A DNA stretch of 63,581 nucleotides, the filler included, from Candidatus Omnitrophota bacterium (GTDB lineage: Bacteria > Omnitrophota > Gorgyraeia > JAGLLT01): NCBI GenBank assembly GCA_023140385.1. It is 4 parts of 4 records of this genome, joined end to end, with 100 filler letters (N's around TTAATTAATTAA, not from the genome) between each part and the next. Parts side by side here need not be neighbours in the genome. Positions count along the whole stretch, not along the records: positions 41,831 to 61,605 come from JAGLLT010000018.1; 3 more parts are not named here. One strand, given 5' to 3'. Of the stretch, positions 46,201-55,200 are shown in pieces. A program made the position numbers. Every line of letters begins with the position of its first letter. Positions within the stretch are counted from its first letter, which is position 1.

Positions 46201-49200
46201 GGAGTGGTTTTGATGGAAAAGATGTGGAAATATTTCTTTACGATGGCAGCAATATAATTCAGCTTACAGATGATACAGATTGTCATAATAATCCCGAAAT
46301 AAATAATCGGGGAGAAGTGGTGTGGGAGATGAATTCAAAAAGAGAAGATTCGGAAATATTCTTTTATGACGGCCAAGGTGTAGAAGTGCTTACGAATAAT
46401 TCAGTTTATGATTATTCTCCTCAAATAAATGATCAGGGGAAAGTAGTGTGGTTCTCAAGGGTAGGTACGGAAGGAAGGGATCGCGATGATGAAATATTGA
46501 TTTATGACGGTAAAGACGTCGTTTGGTTAACGGATAACAAGAGAAGAGAACGTAATGTTCAAATAAATAACCGCGGACAGGCGGTATGGGAAGAGCACGA
46601 CGGGCATGATTGGGAAATATTTTTTGACAATGGCAAAACCGTAATTCAGTTGACGGATAATGATATAGATGATGTTACTCCTCAAATAAACGATGAGGGA
46701 GAAATAGTTTGGTGTGGCGCAGGCCGAGCGCTGCAGTGTGGAAGAAAAATTGAAAGGCAGATATTTTTCTATAACGGCAAAGTTGTAATGCAGCTTACAG
46801 AGGAGGCCGAGGATGTATATGACAATGTACATCCCCATATAAATAACCGGGGAAATATTGTATGGTCCGGCGATTACGGAAGCGGCTACGATATTTTCCT
46901 TGCCACAAAAAACCTCGATCTTTTTGAATCTGCCTTTCCTGGTGATGAGGATAAAATTAAGGCTACGGATATCATAGGCCGAAAACTTCCTTTATAAATA
47001 TATCTCTATATAATAACTATGGCCGCAAATAATATGATGGTGACCATGTTTCAAAGTTGTTTCTCTATAACGGTAAAACTATTACTCAGCTTGCAGGGAA
47101 AGTATCATGGGAAGACAGATAAAAGGTGTCTTCCCCCAAAAGAACAATAAAGCCCCGCCTTTTGTGTAAATGTAAAAAATTTATCCCGTAATAATTCATA
47201 GAGAAGAAATATTTTGAAAAAATACTTGACAAGTCAACTATTGTATGGTAAACTATGTTTAAAATAAGGAGAAAGCTATGGAAAAATCTGATTTTTTTAA
47301 GACCTTTGGTGTGGAGTTAAATAATAAGAGATATTATGAAGAGGCCGTCTACAGCGTAGCCTTGATTTATAACGCGCTTAATAATCATATCTCGCGCCAT
47401 CTAAAGGATTATGGGTTGAGCGTAGCCAAATTTAATGTTTTGCTGGTCATCAAGCATCAGGGGCGGGAAGAAGGTGCCAGCCAGGTGAGCATAAGCCAGC
47501 ATCTGGTAGTTACTCCCTCTAATATGACCCGCCTTCTTGATAAACTTGAAAAAGAAAAACTGATTCGCCGCGTCTGCCAAAAAGGCGACAGAAGAGTAAA
47601 TCTAATAAAGATAACGGATAAAGGAATTAATTTGCTGGATAAAATCTGGCCGGGCTATCTTAATAAATTGCAAAGCCTAAGTTCGCACATAACCGCCGCT
47701 GAGAAAAAAATAGTCTCAACGGTGCTTATAAAGTGGTTGAAGGGAGTATTGCAATGAAGGGATTTTTTGCCTAAAGGAGGAAGCTGAAGAAAGGCGGTTT
47801 AAATGAAAAAAGAAGATTTAATTAAGAGTATGGTTGTTGATAAAAGCCCTTTAGTCAAAGCGGGCTTTAATCCTTATTATCAACCTGTCCGGAGCGGCTT
47901 GGGCAGAAATATAAACGTTAACGGTAAATCTCTGATTTCACTGGGTACAAATGATTATCTGGGTATAGCCAATAATGAAGAGATAAAAAAGGAGGCGCTA
48001 AGGGCATTAAGGAAGTTTGGCGTAAGTATGTGCGGCACGCCGATTGTCGTCGGCCAGACCGCCATCAATAGAAAACTCGAGACGGAAATAGCCAGTTTTT
48101 TAAAACAGGAGGACGCTTTAATATTCCCTTCCTGCTACCAGTGCAATATGGGGATTTTCGGCCTTTTGACAACCGGCGAAGATGTAATTATTGCTGACAG
48201 GGAGATTCATTCTTCTTTGTTGAATGGCATTGGCCTGTCCAAAGCCTCTTTTAAGATATTTTCACACAACAATCTTGATAAGCTAGAAAAAGCTTTAGCA
48301 AGATACAGTAACTGCCGGATGAAATTTATAGTTGTTGAAGGTTTGTATAGTACTAACGGAGATGTTCCGCCATTAGACGGGATGATGAAATTAGCGGAGA
48401 AATACGACGCCTTTATCATTGTTGATGATGCCCATGGTGTGGGTGTGCTGGGCAGGGAGGGGCGAGGCGTTTTGGAGGTTTTTGATGCGTTTAAAGAAAT
48501 AGATTTGGTTACCGGCTCGCTGGGTAAGGGAGTAGGTGCCTTCGGAGGATTTTTAGCGGGAGGCGCTCGATTAATTGATTATTTTCGATACAACTCTCCC
48601 CAGTACTTTTACTCCACAGCCCTGCCGCCAGCTATCGCGGCCGCCTCCATTATCTCCCTCAGATATATCAAAGAACACCCTGAAATACGGGAGAGGATAA
48701 ACAGTTATGCCCGAAAACTATATCAAAAACTTGAAACATTAGGTTTTCGCCTGACTAAATCCACCACTCCGGTAGTCTGCGTTCTTTTTGAAACTGCCGA
48801 AGATGCCATTCTGGCAACTAAGATGCTCTATGAAAAAGGTATTTATACGGTTGTCTTTGTGCCGCCCAGTGTGGCCAAAGGGGCTTCGCGAATCAGGTTG
48901 ACTTTAAATGCCAATCTGCAAAGTGAAGACATTGATTTTGTTATCAGCGTCTTTAGTGACATCAAAAAGAGAAAACCGCAGTGGGTAAACTAAGGTATTA
49001 TCTAATTATGAATCCCGCCTCGAAATCCGGACGAAGCAAAAAGTCCTGCCAACGCGTACTATCTATACTTGACAAGAGAAAGCTCGACTTTAACTATAAA
49101 TTTACCCGCGGGCCGGAGGAAGCGGTAACTCTTGCCGGAGAAGCGGCCGGGAAGGGTTGGGATGTAGTCGTGGCCGTAGGCGGAGACGGGACTATATGCG

Positions 49201-52200: not shown

Positions 52201-55200
52201 ATTGATAAAAACCTGGCCTAAACGGGATGAAGTGCCGCTTTACGGTAAAATGAAAATTTGCGAGAGGGTGTGAAATGTTTTCTAAAAGGATTATTATTTC
52301 TTATGTAAAGTCAACGCGCCCGTATCTGTTTTTTGTTTCAGGTATGGCCGGCTTGCTTGGCATTGTCTTTTCGGAAACAATAGCCTCCTGTGGAAGGACT
52401 ATTTGTATCTTAATCGTACTTTTTTTAGGCTGGGGGGTAAATCAGGTTATCAATGACCTGCTCGGTTTAAGAGAAGATAGAATTAATGCTCCTCATCGTC
52501 CTTTGGTGAGCGGAGAGCTGCCCATTAAAGCGGCCGTTGTCATAAGTCTTCTTTTATTTGCCGGCGGCGGATTAGTTACCTTCTTATTAAACCCGCAGGC
52601 TTTGTTTATCTACAGCGCGATATTTCTCATGAACTTCATTTACGAATATTCAAAAAGTGTACCGGTTCTTGGTAATTTTATCTTTGGTTTTTTGCTCGCC
52701 CTTTGCGTTTATTACGGCGCTGTCTGTCTCAGTCCCCGGGGCTTAGATGCCTTCCTTGATAAAAAACTGCTATTATTGGCGATAAGCGTGGTTTTGATAA
52801 ACATTACGACAGCCTTTTACACTTATTATAAAGACGCCAGAGGTGATTATCTTGCCGGAAAGAAGACTATAATTGTTTGCCTGAAGCCTGACAGAGCAAG
52901 ATATTTGAATTTTATCGTTAGCCTCCTTCCTTTTGTGATCGTTCCGGCTTTGCTATTTTCTCCGGCATGGAACGAAAAAATAAATATATATTTTATAGCT
53001 TTCCTTTTTTTATCTTTTGTTATTTTACAATACACGGCCCTGCTCTTTTTTAAGCATCCCCGGGGCCCTCAAACCTACTTCTCGCTTAGGTGGAATTTTA
53101 CGGGAGCCGTTTTATTTAAAACTTCTTTTGTTGCTCTTGTAAACCCTCTTTTGGCAGGTGTATTATTTTTGGCCAACTTTATCTTAATTAAGTTTTTATT
53201 TAAATTACATTCGGATTATTTGGTTTAAAATGGTATAATTATAAAAAATGTAGAAACAAAAGGAGGATATATGAAAGTTCAAAAGTGGATAAAGCCTTTT
53301 TTTATTATTGCCGGTTTATATGACGGAATTTTGGGTATTATTTTTTTAATAGTTCCGCTTGAACTTTTTAAGACGGCTGCCATCGCCCCGCCCAATCACA
53401 TTGGCTACGTGCAATTTCCGGCACTACTTTTAATTGTCATTGCGGTGATGTTCTTTAATATTGCTAAAGATCCCATAGCCAACCGCAACCTGATTTTATA
53501 CGGTATCTTAGTCAAAATTTCCTACTGCCTGGTAGTATTTCCGCATTGGCTGACCGGCAACATACCGTCTATCTGGATACCCTTTGCTTTTTTTGACCTT
53601 GGGTTTTTGGTAATGTTTTTTATTGCAGGCAAAACACTTAAGCAGACGATGCTAAATAGTCAAAAATAGATAATCAAATACGGCCTATTTACACAATTTA
53701 AGATTTATAACGAAGCCAACATTGAGTTGATGTGGGTAAAGCGTAATTTTCTCGGTACGAAAATAACTTTTTTCCTCGCCGGCAGAGAAGAAGTTTCTTT
53801 ATTTTCCCTTAAGAGGGCATCAACAAAGTTTGGCCTATTAAGAGGGAGTATATTTGACCAGCATAAGATGCTGGCAGGGGGTTTTGAGTGTCAATAGGTA
53901 TCGATTCTATGAAATTTTACGCAGTGTTGGATAAGTATAATCAAAAGATAGGGGACACTGATTACGAAGTTTGATAAAAAGATTCTTGAAATGGAAAAAG
54001 TGTTGAATGTTGAGAACCTGGCCCCTTACGACCGCATGACCCTATACTTCTATACTGGTGATGATTTTATTGATTTGAATGATAATAGATTATGGGATGA
54101 AGGAGAACCATGCGATGACGGGAACAATGATGGTGAATATACTCCTCCAGGATTTAAAACCGAAGGAGATTTAATTGATAATCCAGGCTTTGGAATTGAA
54201 CCAGATAAATTGAATTCTAAACTTAATTAGGGAATCACTATGAAAACAAAATATATTTTGATTTGTCTTAGTTTGCTTTTAACTATTATTTCTTTCAATA
54301 TTTATGCAGATAATAAAATAGAAACTTTAAAAACATATTTAGAAGACAAAAAAATATCAGACTCACCAAATGCCAATGGATTATCCCATCTGGGATCCAA
54401 AGGGTATATAAAACCTGAAGATCAAGTATATATAAATTTAGTTAATAATTTATATGAAATATATCCTCAAAGATTTAGTGTTAGTGTAAGAATTAGTTTA
54501 GCAAAAGAATTAATATCGATTGAAAAAAATGACAAAGCAATAGATATTCTCTTGCCACTAATAAATGAAGTAAAAAAAAGATCTGTATTCTGGGAGTATT
54601 GTTCTAATTGGACATTCAGAGAAGCTCAAGCTAAAGAATTAGAAGGGTTATTTTTATTAACGGAATTATATTTGAAGGATAATAATGTAGATAAAGCACT
54701 TGATGTTTTAATAATTATAAAACAATATTATCCATTTAGAGAAAAAAGTATCGATTCTTTTCTTCTATTTAAAGAGAAATTGAGAAAGTTTAATGAAAAG
54801 CAGAAAGCTATTTTTAATCGTCTTATAACAAAGCAGTTAATTTTTATGAATTCAAACAAATGGGAAGAGCTTGGATTGTTAAGGGATGACAGATTAAATA
54901 AATTGAAGTCGGAACTAGTTGCTTCAGAACCAATTGACGAATTATCATTAAATATAGAGTTCTATAGTTTTGAATCAGAAAAATATTTTATGGTAGTTGC
55001 TTATGTTTCACCAAATACTTCTTTAGTTAACTGTTCTTTTAATTGGGTTATCGAAGGTTCTTACAAAGGAGATAGAGTCTTTAATAATTTTGTATTAATA
55101 GAAAAAGAAAACTTAAAAAATAAAAAAATAAAATTAACAATTACAGATAAGGAAGATAAAATTATTGAAAAGGAATATAATATTTTGCCATCAGCACCCC

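Follow-up and report, generated by a model that had tools for sequence, protein, structure and literature searches.

An operon of an uncultured Omnitrophota bacterium that probably directs synthesis of a prenylated lipid of a new kind

Introduction

What does an uncultured cold-seep bacterium (Candidatus Omnitrophota) make with a six-gene operon that brings together sphingolipid-like, archaeal-ether-lipid-like and radical chemistry? The genome-wide survey's note had described these genes as a widely conserved lipid cluster not yet described, with a phosphorylated, O-prenylated sphingoid base as its putative product. Our search of the open literature likewise turned up no account of them, and the enzyme combination is not yet described. 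Here we examine each enzyme and its recurrence in other genomes, and weigh the products that the operon may make.

Results

An intact and tightly packed operon

The window is the whole joined stretch of 63,581 nucleotides. Contig C10 of the genome carries the cluster, whose genuine neighbourhood covers positions 41831-61605 only, the rest of the stretch being other parts behind N spacers. The operon encodes, in order, a MarR regulator, an alpha-oxoamine synthase (AOS), a DgkB/YegS-type kinase, a fusion of an SDR reductase with a radical SAM enzyme, a UbiA-family enzyme and a small protein with four transmembrane segments (Table 1). The six genes are real and intact and form a single, tightly packed operon, in which the AOS and kinase frames overlap by 13 nt and those of the kinase and the fusion by 4 nt. 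The catalytic motifs are intact: GxxGxxG and YxxxK in the SDR domain, CTYNCAYC in the radical SAM domain, GGDGT in the kinase and the PLP lysine Lys242 in the AOS. Reading frames matched the survey's coordinates exactly, our own domain search recovered the same Pfam domains, and all scores fell under the curated NCBIfam cut-offs, as the survey had stated.

Table 1. Features of the operon, in positions of the window.
Feature	Position	Strand	Characteristics
Sigma-70-like promoter candidate upstream of MarR	47226..47254	+	TTGACA-17-TAAACT, TG-extended; 10/12 consensus matches
MarR-family regulator, operon gene 1	47278..47757	+	Pfam MarR/MarR_2/SarA-Rot, E 1e-9 to 8e-11
AOS, PLP-dependent	47803..48993	+	Aminotran_1_2 E 6.8e-49; Lys242, His136, Asp208, His211 conserved
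DgkB/YegS/BmrU-type soluble lipid kinase	48981..49913	+	DAGK_cat E 6.3e-26, YegS_C E 3.2e-18; GGDGT aa 67-71
SDR-radical SAM fusion, whole gene	49910..52273	+	787 aa
Extended-SDR reductase domain of fusion	49910..50950	+	aa 1-347; G12xxG15xxG18, Y155xxxK159; Epimerase E 1.9e-39
Radical SAM domain of fusion	51020..52273	+	aa 371-787; two N-terminal helices, LPxFPSxAF, C463xxxC467xxC470, twitch-like C-terminal part C682/C701/C736
UbiA-superfamily membrane enzyme	52275..53228	+	N60-D61-xx-G64-xx-E67-D68; Y184-x-K186-D187-xx-G190-D191; Pfam UbiA 92 bits (cut-off 34.2)
132-aa protein, about 4 hydrophobic segments, without family	53271..53669	+	adjoins cluster in 9/80 loci

The promoter candidate is a consensus match alone, in a region that as a whole shows no enrichment of such sites (22 found, 17.5 expected). 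A MarR homologue occupies the equivalent position in locus L004 (51% identity) and a TetR gene replaces it in L066 and L047; most other loci lack it (2/80 positive by tblastn). Whether the small membrane protein belongs to the system is uncertain: tblastn detects it in nine of 80 loci, and its family (430 proteins at E<=1e-3, mostly from Omnitrophota among the matches listed) looks commoner in that phylum than the cluster, which is present in 3 of 301 phylum genomes.

The synthase and the kinase are not specifically sphingolipid enzymes

The AOS, the only one found in the genome, scores 334 bits against the NCBIfam bioF model (cut-off 426), 327 against Kbl (460), 226-294 against the SPT models (500-670), 238 against ALAS and 213 against CqsA. 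Judged by these scores it is equidistant from BioF, Kbl and SPT, so the survey's label "SPT-like" does not hold: the BioF and Kbl models score as high as SPT or higher, all under cut-off. The "sphingoid-base-type" kinase had to be renamed as well, its closest solved structure being the bacterial diacylglycerol kinase DgkB (E 9e-19), with no sphingosine kinase at E<=1e-3. Against TIGR00147 it reaches 114.8 bits (cut-off 118.65).

The operon shares with bacterial ceramide synthesis an initial AOS and a following NAD(P)-dependent reductase, after which a DAGK-fold lipid kinase can act; ceramide kinase, which has that fold, may follow in the ceramide pathway, and some of its clusters contain dedicated ACP genes. 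Unlike that pathway, the cluster has no ceramide synthase, its AOS lies under all three SPT equivalog cut-offs with BioF and Kbl scoring higher, and UbiA and radical SAM enzymes are core members; we know of neither in sphingolipid synthesis. As outlined in one study (PMC11334938), the ceramide pathway consists of Spt, bCerS and CerR, and the Black Sea MAGs analysed there contained no archaeal Spt-like genes, whereas archaeal MAGs do carry the present cluster.

Could these simply be ordinary genes that came together by chance? The AOS would then be BioF or Kbl, the lipid kinase a housekeeping enzyme and the UbiA enzyme a true DGGGP synthase serving archaeal-type ether lipids. The bioF model is indeed the best for the AOS, and DGGGPS-type models are the best for the UbiA enzyme. 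However, the genome has no BioB, BioD or GGGPS above cut-off, the UbiA enzyme does not match DGGGPS motif 1, and these neighbours are found together again in many phyla, in three layouts and with fusions, which makes a chance assembly very improbable. The biotin and canonical archaeal-lipid readings both fail in this genome.

The SDR-radical SAM fusion

The SDR domain finds its top matches in lipid 3-keto reductases (OleD, HpnA and the sterol enzyme SdmB), with best NCBIfam scores of 168 bits for HpnA (cut-off 368) and 124-141 bits for OleD-type 2-alkyl-3-oxoalkanoate reductases (580). The radical SAM domain (AF2 model pLDDT 93.6) has six cysteines that are kept in 78-81 of 81 orthologues. Just three of the auxiliary kind are conserved, in a twitch-like arrangement, and the earlier "SPASM" label was dropped. 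Among 26 matches to the fusion at E<=1e-10, 18 others are full-length (761-805 aa, 50-63% identity), and three of the 80 kept loci encode an SDR-radical SAM fusion. Two proteins, P0035 and P0036, join a UbiA half bearing the same subfamily motif to the radical SAM enzyme, but these could be frameshift artefacts of neighbouring genes. A more distant radical SAM relative is fused to PlsC, the bacterial acyltransferase that puts the second chain on a lipid phosphate.

Like the lipid-modifying radical SAM enzymes Tes/GDGT-MAS, Mss, Gms, Grs, Cds, HpnH/J and Jaw5, the domain has C-terminal Fe-S-binding cysteines, and its gene is tied to an enzyme that attaches a lipid tail. It differs from them in having three conserved auxiliary cysteines, not seven; solved Tes gave no sequence match at E<=0.01 and was absent from the Foldseek matches listed (best ~50). 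None of the radical SAM enzymes named in the relevant parts of a 2026 review (PMC13459092) acts alongside an AOS or a UbiA enzyme.

A tetrapyrrole-type pathway, which the survey had kept open, would combine an ALA-synthase-like AOS, an AhbD/NirJ-like radical SAM enzyme and a heme-O- or chlorophyll-synthase-like UbiA enzyme. The ALAS score, matches to NirJ2 (89 bits) and AhbD (85 bits), and ChlG as second-best relative of the UbiA enzyme all point that way, but every such match is far under its cut-off. No ALAD/HemB was found in this 92.7%-complete genome (the control search was positive in 11 of 14 reference genomes), and the lipid kinase, KS, ACP and MMPL genes would have no role. The reading fails in this genome, and we give it next to no credence. 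A lipid product fits better, given the missing ALAD/HemB, the KS, ACP and MMPL genes in Riflebacteria and the UbiA-radical SAM and PlsC-radical SAM fusions.

A divergent UbiA-family enzyme

The UbiA enzyme is the sole homologue found in the genome. Its closest solved structure is MjDGGGPS (PDB 6m31, E 2.5e-10), and it scores 72-84 bits against the NCBIfam DGGGPS models (cut-offs 296-353). Equivalents of N62, D70, D183 and D187 of MjDGGGPS are kept and the RP loop aligns, but D66 and D180 correspond to invariant Gly64 and Tyr184, so that two of five catalytic Asp are missing. The survey's label "DGGGP synthase-like" does not hold as phrased: among solved structures the relationship is the closest, but these two residues differ. 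In the sections of PMC9385802 on these residues, D66A and D180A strongly lowered MjDGGGPS activity; because the two equivalents are missing, classical prenyl-diphosphate chemistry is not assured. As proposed here, the enzyme would resemble MjDGGGPS in adding a second hydrophobic chain to a one-tailed lipid phosphate, although in a host without GGGPS above cut-off. The genome encodes one short-chain-type prenyl diphosphate synthase, adjoining IspH.

A co-inherited unit with patchy distribution

Scanning 185,579 species genomes gave 336 pattern matches, and at 299 of them a relative of the radical SAM enzyme is encoded. The best 80 of these 299 loci, many truncated by contig ends, were kept; the kinase was found in 73-74 of the 80, UbiA in 67, the AOS in 56 and the SDR in 54-56. 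The tblastn counts (74/67/54/56 for kinase, UbiA, reductase and synthase) closely match those reported earlier (72/63/57/56). Three gene layouts (A, that of this operon, B and C) correspond to three radical SAM clades; the tree accounts for them with two label changes, and fewer would not be possible. Scan, tblastn and tree together bear out a recurrent, co-inherited unit of five activities in bacteria and some archaeal MAGs. The carriers are about 300 species, mostly uncultured anaerobes. "Widely conserved" is right as to spread but overstates the frequency, since the cluster is sparse: 3/301 genomes of its own phylum, 11/151 in the class of a Kiritimatiellia carrier and 17/87 in the phylum of a Riflebacteria carrier (the last two including the centre carrier). 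Riflebacteria loci also encode KS, ACP and an MMPL exporter, and such lipid context beside the AOS is seen in Riflebacteria and Sumerlaeota.

This patchy, HGT-like distribution could also suit a specialised metabolite that diffuses or is exported, in place of a bulk membrane lipid. Such a product might be a signal or an antibiotic, or else a redox-active prenylated heterocycle; the amino ketone could, for example, give rise to a prenylated alkyl-pyrrole, a pyrazine or an alpha-hydroxyketone. KS, ACP, AOS and reductase are likewise combined in the alkylpyrrole branch of prodiginine synthesis, and CAI-1-type signals are also made by AOS enzymes. The MarR/TetR regulators heading operons, the CqsA match, the MMPL exporter of some loci and the OYE-like enzymes, which suggest an enone intermediate, agree with this. 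Against it, the loci examined lack NRPS/PKS megasynthases as well as genes for resistance or immunity, carrier genomes are small (~1.4-2 Mb; 1.50 Mb here), and the DgkB-type kinase and DGGGPS-like UbiA enzyme indicate an amphiphilic phosphate. We regard such a metabolite as rather unlikely, though a serious contender.

Two further genes are present in most loci, a ThiL-like kinase gene (58/80) and an OYE-like flavoenzyme gene (48/80), both missed by the survey because its queries were this genome's proteins only. With them another chemistry comes into view, that of a diphosphate ester. In this reading the lipid kinase and the ThiL-like enzyme would turn the AOS/SDR alcohol stepwise into such an ester, and the divergent UbiA-like enzyme would take it as electrophile and transfer or cyclise its fatty-derived chain without isoprenoid diphosphate. 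The ThiL-like gene lies directly behind the kinase gene in layout B and most layout C loci (L071 is an exception), and the best family of its products is always thiamine-phosphate kinase (99-159 bits, cut-off 184), which converts a phosphate ester to a diphosphate. Diphosphate esters are substrates of UbiA enzymes, the change in the Mg motif (G64, Y184) points to a donor of a non-canonical kind, and the OYE-like enzyme could make or remove an allylic system. The arrangement of hydroxyl kinase, ThiL-like enzyme and UbiA in layouts B and C follows the diphosphate-donor logic of ThiL chemistry and of phytol salvage, in which the alcohol kinase VTE5 and the phosphate kinase VTE6, of other families than the present kinases, feed a UbiA enzyme. 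However, UbiA enzymes use non-allylic alkyl diphosphates poorly, and our genome has no OYE; the only ThiL-like relative that it encodes scores 271 bits, above cut-off, and is a genuine ThiL. The window's layout A, unlike the VTE5/VTE6 scheme, keeps AOS, kinase, SDR, radical SAM and UbiA without a ThiL-like paralogue; the core chemistry therefore needs no diphosphate. A diphosphate-ester donor is accordingly improbable.

Discussion

The operon probably makes a prenylated lipid of a new kind. From the enzyme families we infer a possible route, including its substrates, the sequence of steps and the radical reaction. The AOS would join an amino acid and a fatty acyl thioester into an alpha-amino ketone, which the SDR domain would reduce to an amino alcohol. 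Phosphorylation of a hydroxyl by the DgkB/YegS-type kinase would give a lipid phosphate with one tail, comparable to lyso-PA or GGGP, to which the UbiA-family enzyme would add a C15-C20 prenyl chain as second tail. Finally, the twitch-type radical SAM domain, membrane-located beside UbiA, would tailor the two-tailed product. It might, for instance, couple or cyclise it by forming a C-C bond, desaturate it, or deaminate the vicinal amino alcohol by a radical route.

Several observations support a lipid. The fusions (SDR-radical SAM, and UbiA-radical SAM in P0035 and P0036) join enzymes that would act consecutively, and the closest relatives of the UbiA enzyme catalyse O-prenylation, of a lipid phosphate in the case of DGGGPS and of a carboxylate in that of ChlG. 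Tight operon structure, co-inheritance, KS/ACP/MMPL context, lipid-type SDR matches, kinship with DgkB and the PlsC-radical SAM fusion agree with it, as do a prenyl diphosphate synthase in a genome with no GGGPS above cut-off and no other UbiA or AOS. On the other side, each enzyme is under every curated family cut-off, the AOS is not specifically SPT-like, ceramide synthase is missing and the UbiA enzyme lacks D66/D180 equivalents. Moreover, the ThiL-like kinase and OYE-like reductase of most loci are superfluous to the scheme, and patchy spread and MarR/TetR regulators suit a specialised metabolite equally.

PlsY is present in the genome, and ordinary glycerolipid synthesis therefore coexists with the operon. 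The reading that we tentatively prefer is an accessory, horizontally spread, membrane-associated pathway, which may supply a lipid with a non-glycerol backbone: a prenylated, phosphorylated amino alcohol tailored by the radical SAM enzyme.

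A packed operon of enzymes from known superfamilies

The stretch is a composite of contig pieces with N spacers (paired 44-N) at 30471-30570, 41731-41830 and 61606-61705, and the true neighbourhood of the cluster is only 41831-61605 (contig C10, which ends there). The host genome comprises 1.50 Mb in 57 contigs and is 92.7% complete and 0.16% contaminated; in a scan of species genomes, the closest loci elsewhere were found in Candidatus Omnitrophota MAGs. Six ORFs form a single packed unit, in which the alpha-oxoamine synthase (AOS) and kinase ORFs overlap by 13 nt and the kinase and fusion ORFs by 4 nt. 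A good sigma-70-like site (a consensus match only) lies directly upstream of the MarR gene. Pfam and NCBIfam searches returned the same domains that the genome-wide survey's note had called and, as it had also stated, no NCBIfam score reached a curated cut-off. The catalytic motifs of the operon enzymes were all intact on inspection.

Coordinates of the cluster genes and of the genes downstream.
Feature	Position	Strand	Type
MarR	47278-47757	+	ORF
AOS	47803-48993	+	ORF
Kinase	48981-49913	+	ORF
SDR-radical SAM fusion, 787 aa	49910-52273	+	ORF
UbiA	52275-53228	+	ORF
Hydrophobic 132-aa protein, small 4-TM protein	53271-53669	+	ORF
Family-less	54240-55205		ORF
Family-less	55688-56752		ORF
DUF212	57037-57483		gene

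Beyond two family-less ORFs, 3.4 kb downstream of the cluster, is a gene for a DUF212 ("divergent PAP2") membrane phosphatase-like protein. As a candidate lipid-phosphate phosphatase, it would fit the pathway discussed below. Four public DNA runs from one study of a cold seep metagenome, possibly the source sample, contain 47200-53700 almost completely; no RNA run was among the public sequencing runs listed as containing it.

The cluster recurs sparsely in three layouts

A search of 1.84 billion representatives with the radical SAM domain alone matched 158 representative clusters at E<=1e-30 and, at the looser E<=1e-10, 1600. One genome per species was scanned with a profile of eight radical SAM sequences (a broader alignment of 26 was too diverse); 299 stretches encoded a relative, and the best 80 were kept. 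These loci were searched in a first pass with the window's proteins (E<=1e-5) and in a second with added queries from the loci themselves, identified by Pfam and NCBIfam (E<=1e-6).

Neighbours of the radical SAM gene in the best 80 of 299 stretches; counts are lower bounds because many loci end at contig ends.
Gene	First pass	Second pass
Kinase	74/80	73/80
UbiA	67/80	67/80
AOS	56/80	56/80
SDR	54/80	56/80
Small protein	9/80	9/80
MarR	2/80	2/80
ThiL-like (AIR-synthase fold)		58/80
OYE-like FMN oxidoreductase		48/80
Ketoacyl synthase (KS)		11/80
ACP		11/80
MMPL transporter		7/80

Three gene orders were apparent. Layout A, AOS-kinase-SDR-rSAM-UbiA-(small), occurs in Omnitrophota-like bacteria, in Thermoplasmatota and on short contigs labelled Woesearchaeota, Saccharibacteria or Patescibacteria; layout B, UbiA-rSAM-kinase-ThiL-like-OYE-AOS-SDR, in PVC phyla, Armatimonadota, Elusimicrobiota, Acidobacteriota and others; and layout C, OYE/MMPL/KS/ACP/AOS/SDR/rSAM/kinase/ThiL-like, in Riflebacteria and, rearranged, in a Sumerlaeota locus (L071). 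On a quick IQ-TREE phylogeny of 77 of the 81 radical SAM sequences (L009, L020, L024 and L031, fragments below 330 aa, were dropped), the layout labels change twice, the minimum possible. A single branch (SH-aLRT 94) separates layout B from the rest, the 12 Riflebacteria rows of layout C group together as a clade (99), and layout A includes two clades, one Omnitrophota-like (99) and one archaeal/CPR-labelled (99).

The layout A loci labelled Woesearchaeota, Saccharibacteria and Patescibacteria (L005, L015 and L070) lie on contigs of 3.4-7.7 kb with a GC content of 28-37%. These labels may be binning errors, and the Thermoplasmatota loci, on contigs of 15-31 kb, look more secure; one of them, L067, includes a gene for an EMC3/TMCO1-type insertase, which is typical of archaea.

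With the radical SAM domain as query (E<=1e-50), matches were found in 3/301 genomes of the host's own phylum (3/248 among high-quality ones, the host included in both) and in 0/2 genomes of its family. The class of a Kiritimatiellia carrier gave 11/151, carrier included, one of the 11 being at 31% identity and perhaps a paralogue, and the phylum of a Riflebacteria carrier 17/87, again with the carrier. The cluster had been described as widely conserved: widespread it is, but sparse. Such a distribution suggests that the trait is accessory and has spread by gene transfer, across domains as well. Patchiness, together with the MarR/TetR regulators, also agrees with the main rival to a membrane-lipid pathway, a specialised exported metabolite or signal, which we regard as a serious but rather unlikely alternative.

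The small membrane protein has a family of 430 members (E<=1e-3); most of those named at source are labelled as Omnitrophota hypothetical proteins, with 50-75% identity among the 120 matches listed. The family is seemingly commoner in Omnitrophota than the cluster (3/301 genomes), so that the protein may be an unrelated conserved neighbour. In an Omnitrophota MAG (locus L001, 7935-9697), a stand-alone radical SAM gene (63% identical) occurs together with the small membrane protein, surrounded by the housekeeping genes SecDF, Mfd, SurA, PdxA and KsgA; the UbiA orthologue of that genome is on a different contig (43% identity).

Synthase, reductase and kinase

The AOS is a fold-type I PLP enzyme whose Schiff-base K242 and triad H136/D208/H211 are kept in 57/57 sequences, and it is the only AOS encoded in the genome. 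It had been called serine-palmitoyltransferase (SPT)-like, a description that the scores do not support: the NCBIfam models for bioF (334 bits, cut-off 426) and Kbl (326.7, cut-off 460) outscored every SPT model, the three SPT equivalogs giving 293.9, 286.4 and 225.6 bits and missing their cut-offs of 500, 640 and 670, respectively. The BioF/Kbl-related model scored 299 bits (cut-off 535), ALAS 238 (339) and the CqsA-type model 213 (428). Against solved structures, the E-values were 3.6e-64 for Kbl, 8.2e-61 for SPT and 3e-51 for BioF. Judged by its sequence, the enzyme is a distinct AOS clade, not specifically SPT-like. A biotin (BioF) function was dropped, since neither BioB nor BioD was found above cut-off in the 92.7%-complete genome, and the AOS is thus not a biotin enzyme. 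A tetrapyrrole function was likewise dropped because no ALAD/HemB was found in the genome, and we consider it hardly credible.

The top NCBIfam models for the SDR domain were HpnA and OleD-type 3-oxo reductases; the layout B SDRs show merely 22-30% identity to it, yet their family ranking is identical. In a 422-aa protein, P0055, the N-terminal third of an AOS runs into the C-terminal two thirds of the radical SAM domain; neighbouring genes were probably joined there by a deletion or in a chimeric assembly.

The kinase carries DAGK_cat and YegS_C domains and the GGDGT motif, with 114.8 bits to TIGR00147 (cut-off 118.65). It had been taken for a sphingoid-base-type kinase; instead, among solved structures it comes closest to the diacylglycerol kinase DgkB (9e-19), and all eight solved structures matched at E<=1e-3 are of the bacterial DgkB/YegS/BmrU type, with no sphingosine kinase among them. 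Thiamine-phosphate kinase was the top family every time for the ThiL-like protein of layouts B and C, at 98.7, 107.6 and 159.1 bits, which do not reach the TIGR01379 cut-off of 184.15. The window's genome encodes only a true ThiL (271.4 bits) and no OYE homologue. The kinase and the ThiL-like protein could act as a pair, turning an alcohol into a diphosphate that would be the electrophile for the divergent UbiA enzyme; layout A has no ThiL-like gene, which argues that this is not the core chemistry, and we consider such a role improbable.

A divergent UbiA-family enzyme

The UbiA protein matches PF01040 with 92 bits (gathering score 34.2), has about eight or nine hydrophobic segments, as a multi-pass membrane protein, and is the only UbiA homologue in the genome. 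Its closest solved relative is MjDGGGPS, and to that extent the earlier comparison with DGGGP synthase stands; at the active-site motifs it does not. An alignment was set against the motifs in the accessible part of a review (PMC9385802). MjDGGGPS N62 and D70 correspond to N60 and D68, and D183 and D187 to the conserved D187 and D191. The family departs from motif 1 (D66-x3-D70, Mg2+ ligands), with Gly64 at D66 (Gly in 65/67 sequences) and an extra invariant Glu67, and from motif 3 (D180/D183/D187), with Tyr184 at D180 (Tyr in 66/67); G64, E67 and Y184 are kept in 65-66/67 orthologues. According to the same part of the review, MjDGGGPS activity is strongly lowered by D66A and by D180A (PMC9385802). 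Replacement of both equivalents sets this family apart as a UbiA subfamily of its own, in which the metal/diphosphate site is changed. A protein homologue search (E<=1e-10) returned no longer, fused UbiA homologues, which is weak evidence, and a predicted complex of UbiA with the radical SAM domain (score 0.00) was uninformative either way.

The radical SAM domain and its fusion partners

The CxxxCxxC motif (C463, C467 and C470) is kept in 78-79 of 81 sequences. A SPASM domain had been assigned, but its Pfam match is weak (E 1e-6) and only three C-terminal cysteines, C682, C701 and C736, are conserved (81/81) instead of the seven of the SPASM motif; the domain is better described as twitch-like. 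Three cysteines suggest that there is one auxiliary cluster, in which a coordination site may be open. An auxiliary cluster with such a site is present in MoaA. An AF2 model (pLDDT 93.6) matched only generic twitch/SPASM folds in Foldseek searches of the PDB (TM ~0.5): SkfB, SuiB, BlsE, viperin, PqqE, anSME and MoaA among the matches listed, to about rank 50. GDGT-MAS/Tes was absent from the six PDB matches by sequence, and a Tes/Mss tetraether or membrane-spanning lipid synthase was rejected for want of homology beyond the superfamily in that search and in Foldseek to about rank 50. ESM Atlas matches were generically named radical SAM clusters only.

The SDR-radical SAM fusion is common to 18 further full-length proteins and was found in 3/80 loci (L002-L004); in the Thermoplasmatota locus L067, the two are separate, overlapping genes. 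Two of the 150 best representatives, P0035 and P0036, have a UbiA domain fused to the radical SAM domain, the UbiA halves being 33-35% identical to the window's UbiA with the same special motif. Some of these UbiA fusions could be frameshift artefacts, because the two genes adjoin in layout B. Farther from the window's enzyme, relatives carry a PlsC-type acyltransferase (P0089) or methyltransferases (P0093, P0100 and P0120) as the fusion partner. A one-tailed lipid phosphate receives its second chain from PlsC in bacteria and from DGGGPS in archaea, and fusion to a PlsC-type or UbiA enzyme fits a lipid substrate. P0037 (1467 aa) has an N-terminal radical SAM domain and DUF362 near its C-terminus, with about 650 unassigned residues in between.

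A proposed pathway and its meaning

The reading that we put forward, at somewhat less than even confidence, is a lipid pathway for which we infer every substrate. The AOS would join an amino acid to a fatty acyl thioester, giving an alpha-amino ketone; the SDR would reduce the ketone, the kinase would phosphorylate a hydroxyl, the UbiA enzyme would attach a C15-C20 prenyl chain, and the radical SAM enzyme would tailor the product at the membrane. The presence of KS, ACP and MMPL genes in layout C speaks for a long chain and for a hydrophobic product that is exported. The genome encodes one trans-prenyl diphosphate synthase, of the short-chain type and adjoining IspH, and PlsY. A canonical archaeal ether lipid was dropped, as no GGGPS/PcrB was found above cut-off in the 92.7%-complete genome (best 18.6 bits, cut-off 23.9). 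CdsA (PF01148) was not found in it either, in a search whose control was positive in 13/14 reference genomes; a gap in the assembly, divergence of the enzyme or an unusual head-group pathway could each account for this.

Searches of the open full-text literature found no description of the gene combination (subscription journals and preprint supplements were outside the search). The accessible part of a 2026 review of lipid-modifying radical SAM enzymes covers only Tes, Mss, Gms, Grs, Gmm, Cds, HpnH/J/P/R, Jaw5 and the ladderane enzymes, and mentions neither UbiA nor oxoamine synthases (PMC13459092). A Black Sea metagenome survey of Spt, as far as its accessible text goes, defines sphingolipid potential by Spt, bCerS and CerR, and mentions no kinase, prenyl transferase or radical SAM enzyme (PMC11334938). 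Unlike that bacterial pathway, the window's operon has UbiA and radical SAM genes and no N-acyltransferase among its ORFs (Pfam/NCBIfam); an extended SDR is present, not identified as CerR. We rate the operon as a lipid or natural-product operon that combines known superfamilies in an undescribed way; that these are just ordinary genes seems highly improbable.

A bolder form of the lipid pathway, doubtful when taken as a whole, would yield hybrid membrane lipids of a new class. Glycerol phosphate would give way to an amino-alcohol phosphate, itself assembled from an amino acid plus a fatty acyl chain; the lipid would carry one fatty-derived tail and one isoprenoid tail, added by the DGGGPS-like enzyme, before rewiring by the radical SAM enzyme; and the pathway would have moved between anaerobic bacteria and archaea (Thermoplasmatota), so that the "lipid divide" would be crossed from an unexpected side. 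That the cluster makes a truly new lipid class is, by itself, equally tentative. Such a lipid could account for orphan N-containing ether lipids of anoxic sediments.

If the gene content is a true guide to the product, the cluster would represent a previously unseen route to a two-tailed membrane lipid, uniting the first steps of sphingolipid synthesis, the tail attachment of archaeal ether lipids and radical tailoring in one pathway. The carrier phyla (Omnitrophota, Riflebacteria, Kiritimatiellia, Lentisphaerota, Elusimicrobiota, Armatimonadota and Thermoplasmatota) are almost wholly uncultured and common in anoxic sediments, and the cluster would provide a marker gene for orphan lipids of sediments, a new lipid-directed radical SAM reaction and a UbiA subfamily whose metal-binding motif is non-canonical. 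Should the product turn out to be a specialised metabolite, the conserved unit of five to seven genes still offers a defined, clonable target.
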